Positions 14,633 to 28,896 of a stretch of 29,569 bases of DNA are shown here, piece after piece. The stretch covers positions 1-29,569 of the IMG/VR virus record IMGVR_UViG_3300010412_000110. The stretch is one strand, 5' to 3'. How positions within the stretch are numbered: position 1 is the stretch's first letter; every line of letters starts with the position of its first letter. The notes beneath the pieces are model-generated. The model did no database searches. It was not told the origin of the DNA and was given only the letters and a program-made list of their open reading frames with translations. The DNA comes from a virus (Duplodnaviria; Caudoviricetes). The position numbers and the translations under genes are program-made.

Positions 14633-16045
14633 TTAAAGAGTGTAGCGGTCAGACATTACTGCCTTACGCATTACTGCTTCTGGTGTTAGACCTTCTAGAT
14701 CAGCACCAAGTACCGCCTTCATGATCGCTGGTGAGAATCCAGAGACAAGAGCAACGCCCTTCTCATCGAACTTCACAGGAACATTATCGTAGGCATTGAT
14801 GTTCCAGAAGACTACAGCAGGAACTTCGTAACCGGCTTCCTCGTACTTACGGCGGATCATTTCAATCGCGCTGTTATCGAACTTGGTGCACTGGTTGAAC
14901 TGCATATCTGACATGATTAGGAGAACCTTAGGCATATCAGCAGGATCAACCTTGTTACGAACTGCTACCTTCAAGATTTCGTTGAAGGCACCGTGTAGGT
15001 TGGTTGACATTTCCCAATCAGCACGACGAAGCTGGTTAACCTTCTGGGAAAGGGTACCCTTCAAGTGCTGGAAGGTTGGGTTGGTTGAGAAGGTCAAGAA
15101 CAAATCCTTGAAGGGACCAGTGTTCTTGTCTGCACAATACAAACCAAGAGAAACGGCAACGTCTAGACAGGTAAGAGTAACACCCTTGCTGTTTGCTGAT
15201 CCTACACGAGCAGTCATAGAACCAGAAACGTCAACAAGTGGTAGAACCATGGCATCACCCATGAAGTTAGGCAGAGCCTTCCACTGTTCATCGGCAAGCT
15301 TGTTGTCACCATAATGTACGTTCTTCACGATATCATATGGGTAAACAGCACCTGCATTGACCTTAACAGAAGGATCACCCTTCTTCAATGCTTCCTTGTA
15401 CTTGGTGAATGCATCGGGAGCATTACGACCAAATGCCTTGGAATAACGAGACATAGCAAGTGAAGGAACATGGGAAAAGTTAATTTCATTCCAACACTTC
15501 GCACACATCTTGCTCTCTACAACGCCAGTAAGCTCGACAAGACGCTTACGATAGAACTTAGGAGACCAACCAAGGAACTCACGAAGCTCTACAGCCTTCT
15601 CGCCCTTACGAGGCATCCACTTAGCGCAAAGACCGTTTCCAGCCTCTAGAGCATCGCGGATAAGACCGAAAGCAATCTGCTTGACTTCGGCATCAGTAAA
15701 GATCAAAAGATCATCCCAACGACCAATTTCAGCAGTGTTCTTTAGAAGACGAGTTTCAATCAAGTCTTCCTTGTGGTTCTTTTCTAGGTAACGAAGTACC
15801 TGACGGAAAAGCTCACGCTCACCGGCACCGCCGCGAGCATCACGTGCCCACTGTGCGATACGAAGAGCCACATCACGATCTTCCTGATAGGCGCGTTCAA
15901 ACTGTGAGGTAATGTTCTTACCACGTGAAGCACCGATCTTGAAGAATAGATCAACGGTCTCGGAAAGAGTTGAACGGATAGCCTTCATACCATTGGTAGT
16001 GCGGGCCTTAACAGGAGTTGCGAGTACGGCATTCTTAAAAGACAT
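14633..16045 (-). CDS. Ro60/TROVE-related (DUF2828-type) helical protein with C-terminal vWA domain
   Basis: DLFFKIGASRG, ARDARGGAGERE, GRWDDL, AKWMPRKG; vWA MIDAS VDVSGSM, STNL, SDMQF, VVFWN. Confidence 0.85.
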   Translation of the reverse strand: MSFKNAVLATPVKARTTNGMKAIRSTLSETVDLFFKIGASRGKNITSQFERAYQEDRDVALRIAQWARDARGGAGERELFRQVLRYLEKNHKEDLIETRLLKNTAEIGRWDDLLIFTDAEVKQIAFGLIRDALEAGNGLCAKWMPRKGEKAVELREFLGWSPKFYRKRLVELTGVVESKMCAKCWNEINFSHVPSLAMSRYSKAFGRNAPDAFTKYKEALKKGDPSVKVNAGAVYPYDIVKNVHYGDNKLADEQWKALPNFMGDAMVLPLVDVSGSMTARVGSANSKGVTLTCLDVAVSLGLYCADKNTGPFKDLFLTFSTNPTFQHLKGTLSQKVNQLRRADWEMSTNLHGAFNEILKVAVRNKVDPADMPKVLLIMSDMQFNQCTKFDNSAIEMIRRKYEEAGYEVPAVVFWNINAYDNVPVKFDEKGVALVSGFSPAIMKAVLGADLEGLTPEAVMRKAVMSDRYTL

Positions 16046-16062
16046 ATTAATTCTCCATTATA

Positions 16063-16128
16063 TACAGGTTAACGTTTTTTGCGGTTTTGATTACAAGTCA
16101 AGTGCATTTAGATTGCTGAAATTAACCT
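16063..16128 (-). ncRNA. Y-RNA-like element A, carrying a tRNA-Thr(UGU)-type anticodon stem-loop
   Basis: AGGUUAA-UUU-CAGCAA...UUGA-CUUGUAA-UCAA...UUAACCU-GU. Confidence 0.7.
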
Positions 16129-16133
16129 TTAAT

Positions 16134-16233
16134 CAACAGGCAGGTTGTGTTTCCTTAACCATAACACACGAAGGAATCGAACCTTCTCGGACCTTTGTTT
16201 CAAAAAAGAAGTAAAGATTGCTGTAGTCTGCCT
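16134..16233 (-). ncRNA. Y-RNA-like element B, carrying a T-arm
   Basis: AGGCAG-ACUA-CAGCAA...GAAGG-UUCGAUU-CCUUC...CUGCCU-GUUG. Confidence 0.7.
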
Positions 16234-16243
16234 TAATTCGTAC

Positions 16244-16272
16244 ATGATATATCAACTGAACTAGCTTGTCAA
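16244..16272 (-). promoter_or_regulatory. Sigma70-like promoter driving elements B, A and the Ro-like gene
   Basis: TTGACA-N17-TATCAT, ending about 10 nt before element B. Confidence 0.7.
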
Positions 16273-16293
16273 GCATGATATGTCATGTTTTTT

Positions 16294-16424
16294 CTACGGG
16301 ATGCACTTTTTGCTGTCTATTGCTCTACCAAGCTGAGCTACCTCCCGATAAATGGCCGGGAGGGTTGGATTCGAACCAACGACCCATAGTTTCCATATAG
16401 CTTCAAGTTGCGGTAAGCATCCCT
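16294..16424 (-). ncRNA. YrlA-like element C: circularly permuted tRNA mimic
   Basis: GGGAUGC-UUA-CCGCAA...T arm GUUGG-UUCGAAU-CCAAC, CCUCCCG-GCCA-UUUAU-CGGGAGG closed acceptor, D arm GCUC-AGCUUGGUA-GAGC...GCAUCCC-GUAG. Confidence 0.85.
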
Positions 16425-16429
16425 AAACT

Positions 16430-16582
16430 TTATTCACTCTCAGAGTAATACTTTCTGAGAATATCATAATCAATAATTCCTTCACCACGAAGGAATGTAA
16501 CAATTTTTCGTGCATCAAACATATTCATGTTGCAATTGACAACTAGATCAATTGTAAACTCTTCAAAAACATCTTTGACCAT
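16430..16582 (-). CDS. Small hypothetical protein (50 aa)
   Basis: Not in ORF track. MVKDVFEEFTIDLVVNCNMNMFDARKIVTFLRGEGIIDYDILRKYYSESE with AAGGA RBS. Confidence 0.65.
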   Translation of the reverse strand: MVKDVFEEFTIDLVVNCNMNMFDARKIVTFLRGEGIIDYDILRKYYSESE

Positions 16583-16598
16583 TATCAATCCTTTAATT

Positions 16599-16856
16599 CA
16601 ACGGGCTGTACATTTCTACGCGCTCTACCAGTTGAGCTACGCCCCCATCATAATCCATTACGTCAGGTATGTCAACAGCTTATTGACACCTTATCGCTAA
16701 CCGGTATGTACCGTTATGGCCACTTACGAATAGACCAGAAAGCCACCGTACCCTACTTAAGGGTCAAAGAGGTAATGGATTGTGGTGGGGGCGGCGGGAC
16801 TCGAACACCGCAACCTCGTCCTTATGATGGAATGAAATACATGCTGTAGACAGCCC
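16599..16856 (-). ncRNA. YrlA-like element D: permuted tRNA mimic with a 136-nt insert after CCA
   Basis: GGGCUGU-CUA-CAGCAU...T arm, CGCCCCC-ACCA, insert, GGGGGCG-UA-GCUC-AACUGGUA-GAGC...ACAGCCC-GUUG. Confidence 0.8.
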
Positions 16857-16862
16857 AAAACT

Positions 16863-17090
16863 TTATTGACTATCGATAAACTCAATAATCATATTCTGCC
16901 AGTCCATAACATCAAATGCATCTGGACCGAACTGTGCATTATAACTCAATTCAACATCTTTTGTAAAGAGTGTTTCATCATTTTCTTTAATTGTTAGAAC
17001 GCCAGTATAATCACCTGTACGCATCACTGTACAGTCATACTTATCGTCTAACATGGCATTCCAAACACATTGTGACATAATGTTCTCCAT
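16863..17090 (-). CDS. Hypothetical protein
   Basis: 75 aa ORF between elements E and D; true start probably MSQ after GGAG. Confidence 0.7.
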   Translation of the reverse strand: MENIMSQCVWNAMLDDKYDCTVMRTGDYTGVLTIKENDETLFTKDVELSYNAQFGPDAFDVMDWQNMIIEFIDSQ

Positions 17091-17094
17091 GATT

Positions 17095-17195
17095 CAACAG
17101 GATCGTTGGTTTGTAGAGGGAATCGAACCCCCAAGGTTTGTTTTGCAGACAAATTGCCATCCATTGGCGTACTATTTGGTTGCTGAACCGATCCT
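17095..17195 (-). ncRNA. Y-RNA-like element E: D, anticodon (GCA, Cys) and T arms without a CCA acceptor end
   Basis: AGGAUCG-GUU-CAGCAA...GCC-AAUGGAU-GGC, UUUGU-CUGCAAA-ACAAA, GGGGG-UUCGAUU-CCCUC...CGAUCCU-GUUG. Confidence 0.8.
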
Positions 17196-17200
17196 AAAAC

Positions 17201-17467
17201 TTATTTCAGATTAGCAGCTTCGATTCTAGGATCACGTTTGTATCCACGTTTCTTAGCTACTTCCGAAGCTCTTTCATTCTGCTTAACCATTTCTTCACGG
17301 ATAAGCTTTAGTTCTTCTTCTGTATAATATCGGAGAGTGACCATATAATTAGTGTTTGATACACCCTCCGATATTGGTTCAAAAGAGACTAACTTGGCAG
17401 TATCACCAAAGTAATCAAAGATAATTTTCTTGAAATCGTCTTTGGTCAATTCTGTATATACTGCCAT
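17201..17467 (-). CDS. Small protein whose N-terminus resembles type II homoserine kinase (ThrB/APH family)
   Basis: MAVYTELTKDDF...LVSFEPISEGVSNTNYMVT matches the ThrB-II start; catalytic core absent. Confidence 0.6.
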   Translation of the reverse strand: MAVYTELTKDDFKKIIFDYFGDTAKLVSFEPISEGVSNTNYMVTLRYYTEEELKLIREEMVKQNERASEVAKKRGYKRDPRIEAANLK

Positions 17468-17473
17468 TATATA

Positions 17474-17857
17474 TTACTTTCTACCAATTGTCAAGAGGTT
17501 AAATGCGTCCAACGGACCTTTTTTATCCTCTGCAATTGGGTATACTGCAATGGAAGTATGTTCACCACCATTAAGATCAGGCTCGAAAAATGCTTCATAC
17601 GCAAAACCAAACTTATTCAAAATAAGTTCAACTGCATTAAGAGCAGTCAGATTGCGTACACCAACCACAGTGAAATAAGTTTCGCGTGGATCGATTTGCA
17701 TACCGTGAAGTTGTGGTGGAGATACTATCCCATCACCTTCATACGGCGTCCCATGTTGGGAAAACACACCAAGTTGAAATGCAGCATGTGCAGTCTGAAC
17801 TACTTGATATTCAGGAGAGATATCCTGTCGTGTGAAAAAATAAGCATAATGTCTCAT
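17474..17857 (-). CDS. Peptidyl-tRNA hydrolase Pth2-like protein
   Basis: YFFTRQDI...VQTAHAA...TVVGV...FFEPDLNGGEHTSIAVYP pattern. Confidence 0.7.
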   Translation of the reverse strand: MRHYAYFFTRQDISPEYQVVQTAHAAFQLGVFSQHGTPYEGDGIVSPPQLHGMQIDPRETYFTVVGVRNLTALNAVELILNKFGFAYEAFFEPDLNGGEHTSIAVYPIAEDKKGPLDAFNLLTIGRK

Positions 17858-18728: not shown

Positions 18729-18807
18729 TGGTGCCCTCTGTGGGACTCGAACCCACGCATGACAAATATTTAGAGTATTCCGCTCTAACCAACTGAGCTA
18801 AGAGAGC
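18729..18807 (-). tRNA. tRNA with anticodon CUA (amber suppressor)
   Basis: Full cloverleaf GCUCUCU...GAAUA-CUCUAAA-UAUUU...GUGGG-UUCGAGU-CCCAC-AGAGGGC-A-CCA. Confidence 0.85.
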
Positions 18808-18812
18808 ATATT

Positions 18813-18952
18813 CTACGGGATGGCGGTTCTTGATTTCGGGAACCTAATAAGACCTCTTCTATTGTTTCGGGTTGTGTCCCTATTCTAGTTTCACCTAGAC
18901 TTTGCTCTAAGAGTATCCGAAGATACGAGATATTGTGGCTGTAATCATCCCT
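18813..18952 (-). ncRNA. Y-RNA-like element F with multi-hairpin, non-tRNA cargo
   Basis: GGGAUG-AUUA-CAGCCA...GUAUC-UUCG-GAUAC, UCUAG-GUGAAA-CUAGA...CAUCCC-GUAG. Confidence 0.65.
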
Positions 18953-18963: not shown

Positions 18964-19003
18964 GATGTGATTCGCGGAATTGCCGTTCCCAATCACTCTA
19001 ATA

Positions 19004-19507
19004 ATGTCAACCGTTTATTTATACGTAAAACAGCATTCAATTACCGGACTCAAATATTTCGGTAAAACCATCAAAGACCCATACATATATAAAGGGTCTG
19101 GCAAATATTGGTTAAAGCACATTTCTAAACATGGTAGAGATAAAGTCGTAACTCTTCAAGTATGGAAATTTTCTAATCTAGAAGAAGCTACAGAATTTGC
19201 TCTAAAATTTTCATTAGATAATAACATTGTAGAATCTAATGAATGGGCTAATCTTATGTTAGAGAATGGTATAAATGGCGGGGCTGTAGAAAACAATTAT
19301 TTTAAAATTTTTAATAAATTACCAAGAACAAAATCTCATGGTTCAAATATTTCTAAATCTAAAAAAGGAAAAGCAACCAAAAAATATCCTGTAATGGTGA
19401 ATAATATTGTTTATGAATCGTATGCAGAAGCATCTAGAATTATTGGTGTGTCCGATCAAACCATTATTAATTGGACAAAATCTGGCAAAGCAGTTTCACT
19501 TCGTTAA
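19004..19507 (+). mobile_element. Free-standing GIY-YIG (Seg-like) homing endonuclease
   Basis: VYLYVKQHSITGLKYFGKT..DP..YKGSG..W; C-terminal NUMOD/HTH-like YESYAEASRIIGVS; opposite orientation to neighbours. Confidence 0.85.
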
Positions 19508-19509
19508 AC

Positions 19510-19560
19510 TTAGATGAACACACTCACGCTTTGTAAGCCATTTGAATATGTTCATCTAAG
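19510..19560. terminator. Inverted repeat between the convergent endonuclease and tmRNA
   Basis: CTTAGATGAACA...TGTTCATCTAAG, perfect 12-bp stem. Confidence 0.5.
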
Positions 19561-19890
19561 TGGTGGGTTTCTGTTACGAGGTACCCACCGAACCCTTACA
19601 GATCATGCAGCTAAGCGCATATCCATAATGTCGTTATCATTTGCAGCGACATTTAGTTTTTGTGGGCACTTTACCCAAGCAATCAGTCTCGGACTTCCTA
19701 TTCCACGAAAATCGAATCCCAAGGTCACCCCCATCATCTACTAACTTGAAACGCCGTGCATTACAAGTGTAAGTTACCCCTTTCGGGTGTCCTTGAACAG
19801 TAGGCATCGAACCTACCAAGTTAGTAGATGGTGGAGGTGGGGGGAGTCGAACCCCCGTCTTTCCGCCTTTATTGTTGCCTGTCAACAACT
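19561..19890 (-). ncRNA. ssrA: Two-piece (circularly permuted) tmRNA, tag ANDNDIMDMRLAA
   Basis: Acceptor piece ends GGGGG-UUCGACU-CCCCC-CACCUCC-ACCA (19829); coding piece starts GGGGGUG (19732), giving G3:U70; tag ORF 19644-19603. Confidence 0.93.
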
Positions 19891-19899
19891 GATAATCTA

Positions 19900-19928
19900 T
19901 ATATACGACATTGTGATTCGATTGTCAA
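19900..19928 (-). promoter_or_regulatory. Sigma70-like promoter of tmRNA
   Basis: TTGACA-N17-TATATA. Confidence 0.7.
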
Positions 19929-20795: not shown

Positions 20796-21011
20796 ATGAA
20801 ATTAAAGAAATTCAGAAGCTTTGTCAGACAGCATTATACGCTGTATGGTCCAAAAAAGAGAAAAGAAATCGAAAGTAGACCAGAGCACATCGACAAGATT
20901 GTAGACTCTACTACACAGGCATTGGGTACTTCAAGTCGTTATCATAACGTTCTTCCACATCCATACCATCCACACGTTCATGAAGAGAATGAAAATAATG
21001 AAGAAATTTAA
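20796..21011 (+). CDS. Small hypothetical protein heading the ART operon
   Basis: MKLKKFRSFV...PHPYHPHVHEE; AGGA RBS. Confidence 0.6.
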   Translation: MKLKKFRSFVRQHYTLYGPKKRKEIESRPEHIDKIVDSTTQALGTSSRYHNVLPHPYHPHVHEENENNEEI

Positions 21012-21894
21012 GGATTTCATTGAAGAAGGACGAGGTATTAAGTCTGTCCACGCTGATCCTGTTCATGGTAAGCATTCGCAGAAGAAAGATGTTGGTATTG
21101 TCTCCATTCATGCTGATCCAACTCATGGCAAACACTCGCAGGTAAAGTCTAAGCAGAGAAGTCTTAAGTTTACTAAGGAAGATGCTGTAGACCCGTATTC
21201 TAAAGCACATTGGTATAACGAACACGACAATAATCATATCGGTTCTGACAAGGATGAAGTTCACGAAAAGTTAAATCCAGAAGAAAAACACTGGAATTCT
21301 TTCAAACATAGCGAACACCTTCACAATTACAGCAGTTCCAGTAATAGTTTGAATCGTGAATTGATTAATCGTGATAAGGGCCAAGAGCATATGTCTTATT
21401 ATGACAATCATATCAAAGGTCTTGATGCACACTTGGCTGGCACTAGTCTAAAGCACGACCATTTGAATGTTTACCACGGCACACGTTCTTGGAATCCGGC
21501 CACAGAGCTAAAGAAGACCAAGGACAATACTTTACACATTCCTACCTACCTGTCAACTTCTATTCATAAGAAGACAGCAGGTTCGTTTGCTGGGTCTGAA
21601 GATTATGATGGTCATGGTCGCCATATCATTCACATTAAAGTGCAGAAGGGTCAGAAAGGCCAGTACCTTGGTAGCCACTCTGCTTATCCAGAAGAACACG
21701 AATTCCTTATGCCACGTGGACAGAAGCTTAAGTTCCATCCAGAGCCTAAGGTAGTTCACGATCACGCTGGACCTGTTCATATCTGGACAGCACATGCTAT
21801 TCAGGATAAGGAATTCCATCACGATCCACAAGACGATAGCCGCAATCAGCTTAAGTTCAGTTTTATGAAATCTAGAAGAAGAACAGCAGAATGA
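20998..21894 (+). CDS. Alt/VIP2-like ADP-ribosyltransferase paralog 1
   Basis: YS..S..LNRELI, LNVYHG, YLSTSI, EEHEFLMPRG; N-terminus MKKFKDFIEE. Confidence 0.85.
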   Translation: MKKFKDFIEEGRGIKSVHADPVHGKHSQKKDVGIVSIHADPTHGKHSQVKSKQRSLKFTKEDAVDPYSKAHWYNEHDNNHIGSDKDEVHEKLNPEEKHWNSFKHSEHLHNYSSSSNSLNRELINRDKGQEHMSYYDNHIKGLDAHLAGTSLKHDHLNVYHGTRSWNPATELKKTKDNTLHIPTYLSTSIHKKTAGSFAGSEDYDGHGRHIIHIKVQKGQKGQYLGSHSAYPEEHEFLMPRGQKLKFHPEPKVVHDHAGPVHIWTAHAIQDKEFHHDPQDDSRNQLKFSFMKSRRRTAE

Positions 21895-22775
21895 TTTTAA
21901 AAGATTTTATTGAAGAAAGTAAGAAGCGTGGAGTCATCCTTGCTCAACCTGTTCATGGTAAGCACTCTAAAGAGCCTGTAAGCCATAATGGTGTTATTCT
22001 TGTCGATCCTGTACACGGTAAGCATTCCCGTCCTACGTCTGAGGACAAAGGACATAAAGTCAATGAGGCATACCAAAATCAATATTCAAAGAGTCCAGAG
22101 GGACACGAGCATTTTATTGATTTTGGAAATAAAAACTATAATGATCATCTTGGCGAACACGTTGCAGACGTTCATAAAAAGCTTGATCTGCCTTCACACA
22201 AATATGAAGAAAATCCACATCACGCCGCATTATCAAGATATAGTGTAAGTTCTTACCATCTTAATAACGGTCTTATTAATCGTGCCGCTGGTAGATCAAA
22301 TGTTTGGGATCATACAAAGTATGATACTGCGGAAGAAAAACAATCCAAAAATAAAAGAAAAGAACGTTTTGAAAATGATGTGAAGGATTTGGACAATTCT
22401 TTCAAACATCCTCACGCAAGACTGCAACACGACCTTCATGTTTTTCATGGCACAACAAGATTTAATCCGGGAGAAGAAGCCGCAAAGAATGGCGGTAAAA
22501 TTACTCTTCCCGGATACACATCAACTTCTATTAATGCAAGCAACGCTCTTGATTTTGCAGAGGCTGGCCAATCCCACAATTCTCATGTCATTCATATTCA
22601 TTTGAAGAAGGGTCAAAAGGCACATTATCTGGGTAGTAATTCAGCAGTACCAGAAGAACAAGAAGCCTTACTCCCAAGAAATACTACCTTGCGTGTTCAT
22701 CCAAAACCGACTATACTCCATAGTGGAACAAAAGGTAAGCTTACGCATATTTGGCACGGACATATTGAGGAATAA
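21891..22775 (+). CDS. Alt/VIP2-like ADP-ribosyltransferase paralog 2
   Basis: LHVFHG, YTSTSI, EEQEALLPRN; N-terminus MILKDFIEE. Confidence 0.85.
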   Translation: MILKDFIEESKKRGVILAQPVHGKHSKEPVSHNGVILVDPVHGKHSRPTSEDKGHKVNEAYQNQYSKSPEGHEHFIDFGNKNYNDHLGEHVADVHKKLDLPSHKYEENPHHAALSRYSVSSYHLNNGLINRAAGRSNVWDHTKYDTAEEKQSKNKRKERFENDVKDLDNSFKHPHARLQHDLHVFHGTTRFNPGEEAAKNGGKITLPGYTSTSINASNALDFAEAGQSHNSHVIHIHLKKGQKAHYLGSNSAVPEEQEALLPRNTTLRVHPKPTILHSGTKGKLTHIWHGHIEE

Positions 22776-22777
22776 TA

Positions 22778-23701
22778 ATGAAAAGTTTTAAAGAGTTTGT
22801 CAGAAGAGCAACTTCTAATGTAGCTGATTACGTGCCTTCACATGGTGGTCATGCTAAGGTTTCCGATAAGAAGAATACCGCTGACTACACACCTTCACAC
22901 GGTAAGCACAGCGAAAAGACTCATAAAGAGTCTTACGATATTCAGGAAGCCAGAGCACCAAAGACTACCGATTGGTATCACTTTAATGGACACAACCCGA
23001 ACCCACATGTTGGTGGTGATGTTGAAGGTGTACATAATGCACTTGAACATAGTCATGAAGATTGGGAAAATAAACACCAAGAGCATGAAAAAGAGGCTGT
23101 AAAGAATTACACCAGAAGCAGCAGAGATTTGAATATGCATCTTATCGATACTGGCAACGGTAGAAAGTCACATTTGGAAGATCATCCTGACGATAGTGAT
23201 GCAACCAAAGATTGGAAAAGAGGCAAGAGAGAACAGACACATGAGACAATCAAAGGTCTTGATTCCATCTTAGGAAAATCAAAAACCAAGCATAGTTTGA
23301 CGGTATTCCATGGTATGAATATGGAAACAAGTAAGACCTTTAATCCGGGTGAAGCGGCTAGCCATCATCCAGAAAGACACGTTACATTTCCTTCATACCT
23401 ATCAACCTCTATTAAACCAGAAGTTGCTTCTTCATTTGCCAGACCAGCAAGAGGCTATGCCGCAAATGAAGCACACAATGAACCTTCACCGCATCCAACA
23501 CATGTCCTTAGAATCAAGATGAAGAAGGGTCAAAAAGGATACAAGTATGTTGGGGATCGCTCTGCTCTTCCCGGCGAATATGAAGGTATCTTGAAAAGAA
23601 ATACGACTCTAAAGATTGCAAAGAAACCAGAAGTTGTACAACATCCTTCTGGTGGTCAAATGCATGTTTGGAATGCTAGAATCGTAGATGACAAAGACTA
23701 A
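22778..23701 (+). CDS. Alt/VIP2-like ADP-ribosyltransferase paralog 3
   Basis: LTVFHG, YLSTSI, GEYEGILKRN; N-terminus MKSFKEFV. Confidence 0.85.
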   Translation: MKSFKEFVRRATSNVADYVPSHGGHAKVSDKKNTADYTPSHGKHSEKTHKESYDIQEARAPKTTDWYHFNGHNPNPHVGGDVEGVHNALEHSHEDWENKHQEHEKEAVKNYTRSSRDLNMHLIDTGNGRKSHLEDHPDDSDATKDWKRGKREQTHETIKGLDSILGKSKTKHSLTVFHGMNMETSKTFNPGEAASHHPERHVTFPSYLSTSIKPEVASSFARPARGYAANEAHNEPSPHPTHVLRIKMKKGQKGYKYVGDRSALPGEYEGILKRNTTLKIAKKPEVVQHPSGGQMHVWNARIVDDKD

Positions 23702-24090: not shown

Positions 24091-24726
24091 TCACTTATAA
24101 CGTTTTTGTAACTCTTTCACTATAGGCGCATCTGACGGGTGTGTCAATACCTTGTGTAAATGTTTTACTGGTACTAGGGAAACTGCTTGTGATTCCCATC
24201 CCATATCAGAAGGGTGTCCACCAGTGCGCTCACCTGTGTAGTAACGAGCAACAGACGTTGTGCGTTCTGTGTCGCCAAGGTGTCCAGTAAGCTTAGCCTT
24301 TAGACCAGACTCTTCATGGACTTCCTTAAGAGCATTCTCGTGCATATTAAGACCATGTTCTACAGTTCCCTTAGGGAGAGTAGCATGATATCCACCAAAC
24401 TGATTGGTAGGATGCACAACCCACACACGATGAGAACCGTCATGATGCTTTTCGATCATGGCAACACCAACAGACTGTTTCTTTCCGTTTCTAGGTGTCA
24501 TTAGTGGCGGTTCACGGAATCCACCTTGACCATGTACACCTTTCCAGCTATCTGGTGTAGGATGCTTTTTAAAAGGCACCCCATTTAATTCATGTGGTAC
24601 GCCATCATGGTTAGGTGTAGTGGTAGCATGTGCCTCAGGATCGTGCCAATGCTCTGTAGGACTTGGTGTATGGGGATCACGAATTCTTACGCTATCCCCA
24701 TAATCGTCTCTTTTAGGATGAATCAT
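24091..24726 (-). CDS. Nudix hydrolase
   Basis: Nudix box LPKGTVEHGLNMHENALKEVHEESGL. Confidence 0.9.
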   Translation of the reverse strand: MIHPKRDDYGDSVRIRDPHTPSPTEHWHDPEAHATTTPNHDGVPHELNGVPFKKHPTPDSWKGVHGQGGFREPPLMTPRNGKKQSVGVAMIEKHHDGSHRVWVVHPTNQFGGYHATLPKGTVEHGLNMHENALKEVHEESGLKAKLTGHLGDTERTTSVARYYTGERTGGHPSDMGWESQAVSLVPVKHLHKVLTHPSDAPIVKELQKRYK

Positions 24727-27321: not shown

Positions 27322-27741
27322 TTATATATCTAGTTTTGTCTTAGCCCACTCAATATAATCTCTGATACGTTTACCGCCAACAGGATTCATAGAGTGAACT
27401 TCGTATTCTGGAAACTTATAACCGTTATTCGCACAAAAGTCAACAAGAAACTTTGCACAGTCATAACCGGTCTTTTCTTTTCCATAATCAAAGGTTAGAT
27501 TCATCCCGCCTTGATCGTCTTCGAAAAAGAAAGTATATTGTTGTGCTTCAACTTCCTTAAGCATGACTTCATAGTGTTCATCTGCCAAGTCATGATCAAA
27601 TGATACAAACTTGGGGACACCATACTTAGTCACGAGAAGCACAAACTCATTATAGTTACGAGCAATTTCCCACGTTGCAAAAGGAAGACGTACCCATTTT
27701 ACATCGTATGGCTTTCTCTCATCGTCTAGAAACAGGTACAT
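27322..27741 (-). CDS. Cyclic-phosphate-processing receiver-domain protein
   Basis: LFLDDER...SFDHDL...KTGYD...VHSMNPVG. Confidence 0.8.
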   Translation of the reverse strand: MYLFLDDERKPYDVKWVRLPFATWEIARNYNEFVLLVTKYGVPKFVSFDHDLADEHYEVMLKEVEAQQYTFFFEDDQGGMNLTFDYGKEKTGYDCAKFLVDFCANNGYKFPEYEVHSMNPVGGKRIRDYIEWAKTKLDI

Positions 27742-28102: not shown

Positions 28103-28311
28103 ATTAGCTCTTTAAGAAGCTCTTCGCCCTTTTCAGTGATGAAGGCTGTACCAAGAGACCAACTAACATAGCCTTCAAATACCATATAATAGTAGTAATG
28201 GTACAGCCTCTTATCACCACCACGATACTTAGCCAAGAGCAAAAGACGCTTCAACTTTGTATCAGAAAAGAACTTCCATTCATTAGTATTGTGGTCGTAA
28301 TACTTCATCAC
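28066..28311 (-). CDS. Hypothetical protein (3' end overlaps tRNA-Ser)
   Basis: 81 aa; start overlaps upstream stop; ITEKGEELL winged-helix-like end. Confidence 0.6.
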   Translation of the reverse strand: MMKYYDHNTNEWKFFSDTKLKRLLLLAKYRGGDKRLYHYYYYMVFEGYVSWSLGTAFITEKGEELLKELMEHGQDGNAAHC

Positions 28312-28871
28312 ATAATCCTTGGACCATTACCATTGCGGAAGCCGATTGTACCACCCTGTTCTACGATCTTCTTCTGTACTTCTTCAAAAGCAATAGGACG
28401 AAAATCAGTCTGCTCAACACAAACACAGAAGTAGTCAGGATCGATTACATCACCCATCATAACACGATTGCCATGAGTGTGACCATGGATATTGCAACCA
28501 AATCGTGCAAGGCTATCCTTACTGATAGGAATGTGAGACAGGATCAAACCGTTCATCACATGATATCCACGAATGTCACGAAAATACTTAGTGTAATCCG
28601 TCAGTTTGAAGATATCATGGTTGCCCTTGATGAGAACCTTGTCACCGTTCAGGCGTTCCATAATGGACAGGGACTTACGATTGATAACAACGTCTCCAAG
28701 ATGATAGACCTTATCTTTCGGTCCTACCGTCTCGTTCCAACGCTTTACCATTTCCTCGTCCATTTCCTCTACGTTATCCCAAGGACGTACAGGAGAACCA
28801 TCATAGTTTTCAAAAACACAAATGTTCTTGTGTCCAAAGTGTGTGTCGCTTGTCAGAAAAACGTTACTCAT
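28308..28871 (-). CDS. Calcineurin-like metallophosphoesterase
   Basis: SDTHFGH, HLGD, GNHD, SHIP, IHGHTH. Confidence 0.92.
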   Translation of the reverse strand: MSNVFLTSDTHFGHKNICVFENYDGSPVRPWDNVEEMDEEMVKRWNETVGPKDKVYHLGDVVINRKSLSIMERLNGDKVLIKGNHDIFKLTDYTKYFRDIRGYHVMNGLILSHIPISKDSLARFGCNIHGHTHGNRVMMGDVIDPDYFCVCVEQTDFRPIAFEEVQKKIVEQGGTIGFRNGNGPRIM

Positions 28872-28896
28872 TATATTCCCTCTCAATCATGACAGG

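Follow-up and report, generated by a model that had tools for sequence, protein, structure and literature searches.

Small tRNA-like RNAs are known as partners of Ro60-type proteins. YrlA (RF02553), as described in PMC4201824, lies upstream of a Ro60-fold gene with several RNAs per locus, and the Rsr-bound Y RNA Yrn1 of D. radiodurans has, in the same account, D, anticodon and T arms in that order, with a 6-nt loop and a doubtful D arm. In Thermus phage phiLo, the RNAs Yrl1 and Yrl2 (PDB 9KOP, 9L5Y) are likewise encoded upstream of the Ro60 gene, carry a CGAA motif, and form with Ro60 a complex that engages a host nuclease, dampening PNPase (PMC12135203, from whose main text the word 'anticodon' is absent). 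Phage tRNAs that counter host tRNases are described in PMC10264068, PMC11555353 and PMC12409363 as chargeable, cleavage-resistant replacements for the lost tRNA; the RNAs reported here would belong to the same conflict and overlap with them in anticodons, but are without a full acceptor end, and since they could not replace a lost tRNA they should act by binding. In outline these RNAs also resemble dictyostelid Class I RNAs (a length of about 60 nt, ends joined by a short stem, a conserved motif beside the 5' strand, a variable middle, an AAG start and a CUGU end), although those are eukaryotic and the part of PMC7919456 cited here mentions neither tRNA arms nor a Ro partner; an Rfam search of our elements gave no Class I match at E<=5. 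The openly accessible literature covered describes neither these handle RNAs nor decoys made of anticodon arms; some members of the T-D type may be among the entries in the Infernal tables of PMC4201824.

The window analysed here (the whole stretch of 29,569 nt) is part of a T4-like phage genome, with genes for baseplate, tail tube, gp32 and gp59, and also encodes tRNA genes and a permuted tmRNA. Judged by sequence comparison, the handle RNA design found in it is real, conserved and widespread. The reading we tentatively prefer is that two of the RNAs, A and E, would be held by a Ro-type ring and present anticodon arms, likely unchargeable, as bait for host enzymes that act on anticodon arms, most likely anti-phage tRNA nucleases.

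The handle RNA array and its presumed partner gene

Searching for the handle as a pattern (a 7-bp stem whose position 2 is G, followed by three bases, C(A/C)GC, the cargo, the complementary strand and GU) gave 11 matches in the window, six of which are intergenic elements, A to F, upstream of a DUF2828 gene and on its strand; the other five, in coding regions or on the opposite strand, were discarded as chance matches. After the 7-bp stem and 3 nt the elements read C(A/C)GC(A/C), also given as C(A/C)GCA, a motif that was itself part of the pattern. The features are:

14633..16045, minus strand: DUF2828/DUF7788 gene (PHROG 850), the presumed partner; 470 aa, predicted Ro60 fold with HEAT ring and vWA
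16064..16128, minus strand: handle RNA A; handle, 3-bp D-stem-like helix and Thr(UGU) anticodon arm
16080..16106, minus strand: helix of A enclosing the arm; 16104-16106 with 16080-16082, plus A26 (16103), corresponding to tRNA pairs 10-12:23-25
16086..16102, minus strand: anticodon arm of A; anticodon UGU at 16093-16095, with 36-UAA-38
16136..16233, minus strand: handle RNA B; Phe-type (GAA) anticodon arm, T arm and an additional hairpin
16244..16272, minus strand: sigma70-like promoter ahead of B, A and the DUF2828 gene; consensus match only
16296..16423, minus strand: handle RNA C; YrlA-like T arm, capped acceptor stem and D arm; Rfam match
16601..16856, minus strand: handle RNA D; T arm, long insert and D arm, with a weak 3-bp CAU loop at 16822-16828
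17097..17195, minus strand: handle RNA E; acceptor stub, D arm, Cys(GCA) anticodon arm and T arm, without terminal CCA
17466..17494, minus strand: sigma70-like promoter upstream of an 88-aa ORF and E; consensus match only
18815..18951, minus strand: handle RNA F, with non-tRNA cargo; outside the 16,063-17,195 region

Contigs from four RNA-labelled runs overlap parts of the region; being uninformative on transcription, strand and ends, they were excluded from the evidence.

The 470-aa protein was modelled with AlphaFold (AF2; pLDDT 71.5, alignment of 12 sequences), and all 13 Foldseek matches of the model in the PDB at E<=0.001 are Ro60/TROVE structures. The best of them is the Thermus phage phiLo Ro60 (phiRo60; E 3.7e-11, TM 0.57), at an identity of 19%, which together with the CGAA motif of the phiLo RNAs (PMC12135203, as cited above) sets that system apart from ours. 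ESM Atlas neighbours of the protein are TROVE families. By sequence, Pfam gives DUF2828 and DUF7788 only, without a match to TROVE (PF05731), and a search of solved structures gave no PDB match below E 0.2. The neighbouring gene product is thus predicted to have a Ro60 fold, as the original prediction had supposed in speaking of a Ro-like ring. DUF2828 is present in 711 of 50,697 annotated phage records.

Element C has the YrlA order of T arm, acceptor and D arm and matches the Rfam YrlA model at 41.2 bits (E 9e-7), below the gathering score of 69; A and E gave no YrlA match in Rfam. YrlA mimics the elbow and acceptor of tRNA, while A and E mimic its anticodon side and some homologs combine both; the handle motif, C(A/C)GCA, is not the GNCGAAN0-1G of YrlA. 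The system would resemble a Ro60-Y RNA particle, yet it falls outside YrlA by motif, order and score, and outside tRNA as well.

Other features of the window were recorded in passing. A tRNA gene with the amber anticodon CUA lies at 18729-18807 (minus strand), and 23 of the 1076 distinct tRNAs of related loci share that anticodon; none of the 32 genes of the window ends in TAG, recoding is not evident, and this reading was dropped for lack of support. The tmRNA, permuted and in two pieces (19512-19924, minus strand; Rfam 76.7 bits), adjoins a homing-endonuclease-like ORF (18980-19507) and may be a hint of an alphaproteobacterial host, with which such tmRNAs are associated. Three tandem Alt-like ADP-ribosyltransferase genes (20980-23701, plus strand) are followed by a NUDIX hydrolase gene on the opposite strand (24091-24726). 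A cREC_REC cyclic-phosphate receiver-domain protein and a phosphoesterase are encoded amid tRNA genes (27322-27741 and 28308-28886, minus strand).

Anticodon arms in A, E and related phages

The anticodon arms on A and E are confirmed. In A (minus strand) the 7-bp handle is followed by UUGA-CU[UGU]AA-UCAA, with a stem of 4 bp plus C.A at 27:43 and a tRNA-type 7-nt U33/R37 loop. This Thr(UGU) arm had been described as all that A holds, which goes too far, as the 3-bp helix and A26 lie beneath it. B too carries an arm (UU-GAA-AC, 5 bp, loop 16197-16203). In E (minus strand) we located a D arm (17156-17168), UUUGU-CU[GCA]AA-ACAAA (17137-17153; 5 bp, with a 7-nt U33/R37 loop) and a T arm (17116-17132), in the normal order that had been predicted and closed by the handle.

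The acceptor end of E had been said to be replaced by the handle, with no CCA. A terminal CCA is indeed missing, but E keeps an acceptor stub of 2-3 bp and an internal CCA (17107-17109) two places before the tRNA position. Among the E-type RNAs (n=12, 11 found by rule and one by eye, selected on a paired arm and U33), CCA occurs anywhere after the T stem in three and at the tRNA position in none, and the stub has 1-5 bp in the 11 that are measurable, against the 7 bp of a tRNA acceptor stem; these RNAs thus have neither the 7-bp acceptor stem nor the 3' NCCA position of a functional tRNA. ARAGORN does not call E a tRNA, and its Rfam tRNA score, 26.8 bits, is under the 29-bit gathering score. 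The claim that such RNAs cannot be aminoacylated fares well, charging being very unlikely without a full acceptor stem and terminal CCA. E does answer to the description 'inverse of YrlA', a layout for which Yrn1 is already a precedent; as 11 homologs combine the YrlA order with an anticodon arm, however, simple replacement of that arm by the handle is not what is seen. From Yrn1, as described in PMC4201824, E-type RNAs differ by their 7-nt C32-U33-NNN-A37 loops, varied anticodons, handle motif and DUF2828 partner. In the 12, all five pairs of the anticodon stem and three of the four D-stem pairs show two-sided changes; given the selection of these RNAs for a paired arm and U33, the evidence lies not in pairing itself but in how much the pair types and the anticodons vary (GCA, UCC x3, UCU x2, UGU, UUU, UAU, GUA, AUU and AAU, with A34 in 2 of 12).

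Folding of single sequences (ViennaRNA) does not favour these models: the arm of A has a pair probability of about 0.25, the cloverleaf of E lies 8.4 kcal/mol above the MFE with an anticodon-stem pair probability of 0.01, and folding z-scores for A, B and E are weak (-0.4 to -1.3), so that the case rests on comparison of sequences. Handle matches within 500 nt upstream of the gene numbered 284 in sense and 1 in antisense (201 sequences). A larger survey covered 270 loci (174 non-redundant, some contigs having been fetched twice) and, sampling elements upstream of the DUF2828 gene and thus gene-proximal handle RNAs, gave 539 distinct elements in 231 loci: 217 short, 11 D-anticodon-T, 11 anticodon-T-D, 30 other T-D, 27 T only and 243 other. 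The handle stem covaries in both the A-type and E-type sets, for which its pairing was itself a selection criterion.

Short elements of at least 50 nt (195 of the 217) form 125 clusters at 85% similarity, and 36 of these have a strict canonical arm, CU-NNN-A(A/C) closed by at least 4 pairs, against 1.1 in dinucleotide shuffles (maximum 4 in 300 shuffles) and 0 in reverse complements. When picked on stem pairing alone, 58 of the 125 clusters have 5/5 pairs round a 7-nt loop (shuffles 14.7, maximum 24); U33 is found in 42 of them (23% in shuffles), A37 in 45 and A34 in 6. Homologs thus keep the 7-nt loop and U33, although conservation is incomplete, with U33 absent from 16 of the 58 and a minority of loops having A32, G33 or C33. 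Of the 149 non-redundant loci whose upstream sequence reaches 300 nt or more, 72 have the strict arm in at least one element, a count that may include chance matches in longer cargo. The whole window holds 12 CU-NNN-AA hairpins of at least 4 bp, among which, beyond those of A and E, four belong to tRNA genes and one to the tmRNA region.

The elements sit among tRNA genes, and the arms could be captured pieces of such genes, serving as filler that aids processing or stability only, with anticodon identity unimportant; a protective role has been proposed for the YrlA tRNA fold (in the part of PMC4201824 cited), and deviant loops are many. Recent capture was rejected, as short-mimic stems have 25% GC against 59% in tRNA genes of the same loci, in which only 2 of 42 mimic 15-mers are found. 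We consider the relic or filler reading as a whole improbable: the stems have been rebuilt AU-rich and are still paired, U33, A37 and the avoidance of A34 and stops persist, and a bare arm offers processing enzymes no elbow.

In short elements of six loci, loops recur in which CAU is preceded by G instead of U33; these variants are possibly uncleavable or possibly form no U-turn. At eight loci, the RNAs have anticodon arm, T arm, capped acceptor stem and D arm, that is, they are whole tRNAs permuted at the D/anticodon junction. A 165-nt handle RNA recurs at six loci, some 480 nt ahead of the gene; its CUGGAG and UGAAG motifs are conserved and may be reminiscent of glycine-riboswitch junctions.

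Position 37 and the choice of anticodon

Element A represents a set of 28 RNAs (from 30 candidates, two near-duplicates being removed) in which a 3-bp helix and A26 enclose the arm. The putative D-stem-like helix covaries, its middle pair being G-C in 18 and A-U in 9. The selection pattern demanded the helix letters, U33, A37 and A38 and made no demand on U36, which is nevertheless invariant, while bases 34 and 35 vary (UGU, UUU, UCU, GAU). In an anchored test of all strict short elements, a helix of 2-3 bp accompanies 35 of the 48 distinct elements that have U36 and none of the 25 that do not; by cluster the figures are 7 of 17 and 0 of 19 (P 0.002), which common descent may inflate. Ralstonia phage RSP15, from outside model building, has an element with another helix sequence and again U36 (GUU, with C33).

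The cryo-EM account of the t6A enzyme TsaBD in PMC13276492, as far as cited here, limits its contacts to D-stem pairs 10:25, 11:24 and 12:23 and the anticodon loop, reports that the enzyme requires 36-UAA-38 and is indifferent to bases 34 and 35, and puts the cost of U11:A24 or A12:U23 at only about 35% of activity. A and its class carry 36-UAA-38 and equivalents of the same three pairs, with the D stem permuted, so that A-type RNAs can be read as a match to a permuted TsaBD footprint. Isopentenyl transferases modify anticodon stem-loop oligonucleotides bearing A36-A37-A38 (in the cited part of PMC5699536), and bare A36 arms would accordingly fit MiaA. U or A is at position 36 in 33 of the 36 strict clusters against 380 of 616 tRNA clusters, a difference to which the A37 requirement of the strict pattern contributes. 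We infer that the mimics may be built for modification at position 37.

The footprint match raises the standing of the alternative function in the original prediction, recruitment of enzymes. Here, as in RYPER, the RNA would be a tether between the Ro ring and an enzyme of the host that binds tRNA (TsaBD, MiaA, a synthetase or an RNase), so that phage tRNAs are modified, matured or repaired, the arm being an adaptor and not a bait. The restriction of the A-type helix to U36 clusters, the tolerance of TsaBD for the U11:A24 change seen here (PMC13276492, as above), the highly varied cargo of handle RNAs, the richness of the loci in tRNA genes and the linking of Ro60 to PNPase by Y RNAs (as given in PMC4201824 and PMC12135203) all speak for such a tether. 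Although it is the main rival of the bait reading, we rate it as rather unlikely: an enzyme occupied by the mimic could presumably not serve another tRNA at the same site, the indifference of TsaBD to positions 34 and 35 leaves valid and switching anticodons unexplained, the helix is missing from 10 of 17 U36 clusters and its class may have a single origin, and anticodons for Ser rank among the commonest, although SerRS recognises its tRNAs without reading the anticodon. On this last ground a synthetase decoy was rejected as a general reading.

The anticodons themselves were compared across homologous arrays, as the original prediction had proposed; arms are kept while anticodons differ and switch. 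The 36 strict clusters span 18 anticodons, with A34 in none and a stop anticodon in none (P about 0.007 from position frequencies). Between relatives whose proteins are 73-76% identical the anticodon switches among UGU, UUU, GAU and CUU, and in no locus is an anticodon repeated (0 of 31 pairs of mimics, against an expectation of 2.9; P about 0.06). UGA, UGU, GUA, GCA and UUU, a set chosen post hoc, account for 27 of the 56 mimic clusters and for 86 of the 616 tRNA clusters, and the mimic anticodon spectrum is different from that of the phages' tRNA genes. Mimics neither avoid nor favour, per locus, the anticodons of the tRNA genes there (10 against 9.3 expected, fetched flanks only).

The sources cited here, each for part of its content, name as targets UUU, UGU and GUU for AriB (PMC12409363), UGU, UCC and CAU for OLD (10.64898/2026.07.10.737580), Tyr for PtuAB (PMC11555353) and Ser NGA for VapC (PMC10264068). 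The five commonest mimic anticodons overlap the published targets of AriB, OLD, PtuAB, PrrC, Schlafen and VapC (PMC13056530 being among the sources). Val(UAC), an OLD target, is in 0 of 56 mimic clusters, and the AriB cut motif, present in A, is not enriched in UGU mimic arms (3 of 10 against 5 of 26 tRNA arms). The mimic spectrum fits enzymes modifying position 37 equally well.

Valid anticodons and the TsaBD footprint would also suit RNAs that bind ribosomes codon-specifically, or that titrate TsaBD or MiaA and so lower the modification of host tRNAs. We find this very improbable, since a ring-bound RNA would probably clash with the ribosome and the phage needs these codons itself, ACA being used 181 times in the 32 genes of the window. 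We also consider a reading of the arms as T-box ligands unlikely.

A proposed bait for host tRNA nucleases

The preferred bait reading can be laid out in steps. Comparison shows handle and arms conserved through compensatory change. The RNAs would then be expressed and excised from longer transcripts, and the ring, to judge from its predicted fold and linkage, would bind the handle and stabilise the RNA. Host enzymes would modify A37, A-type RNAs keeping the parts that TsaBD touches and bare A36 arms suiting MiaA. In the least certain step, modified mimics would compete for or hold tRNases, each phage offering a panel of different anticodons. A more specific form, which we think doubtful, is that many large phages build a Ro particle carrying interchangeable, minimal, host-modified mimics, among which A-type RNAs, as circularly permuted modules of D stem and anticodon arm receiving t6A37, would trap modification-dependent anticodon nucleases. 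If true, this would amount to an RNA-based arsenal against host defence, its anticodon panel keeping a record of the tRNAs hit by host immune nucleases; PrrC is stated to need ct6A37 (PMC12409363, in the passages cited).

The same passages of PMC12409363 raise competition by viral tRNAs as a possibility and report that AriB also needs D-loop U16 and other contacts, which A lacks. In 10.64898/2026.07.10.737580, as cited here, a resistant phage tRNA-Thr gave host tRNA no protection from OLD, with no competitive inhibition. The 243 of 539 handle RNAs with other cargo also count against bait, since on these numbers the handle-RNA system as a whole is not about anticodons.

Canonical, host-like loops would equally serve an arm that is meant to be cut, a tRNase nick (leaving a cyclic-phosphate end) releasing or switching the Ro protein toward RNA repair or counter-defence. 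The cREC_REC protein and phosphoesterase of the window, an RNA ligase encoded in Serratia phage BF two genes upstream of the homolog, and the description of ROT/TROVE as an RNA-repair platform in jumbo phages (in the part of PMC7824862 cited) are in line with such a sensor, which we hold to be improbable, as neither an output domain nor a ligase adjoins the gene in the window.

tRNA cleavage is a common output of bacterial immunity, and the counters in the literature covered are resistant tRNAs and ligases; if the bait reading is true, unchargeable mimics presented by a Ro-type ring would add a third route, and DUF2828 would gain a function. The A-type RNA yields a concrete prediction, that of a 65-nt natural minimal TsaBD substrate, and the question is testable in that a cultured coliphage carries handle RNAs. 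In this Felixounavirus, Escherichia phage VpaE1, they lie unannotated between tRNA genes (L025:6743-7377), three as model matches and a fourth, in YrlA order, found by eye. Handle motifs within a tRNA-like frame occur in two annotated genes as well, an odd 'tRNA-Val' of Aeromonas phage Aeh1 (L022:9187-9316) and a 'pseudo-tRNA' of Citrobacter phage Ci1 (L019:6979-7092).
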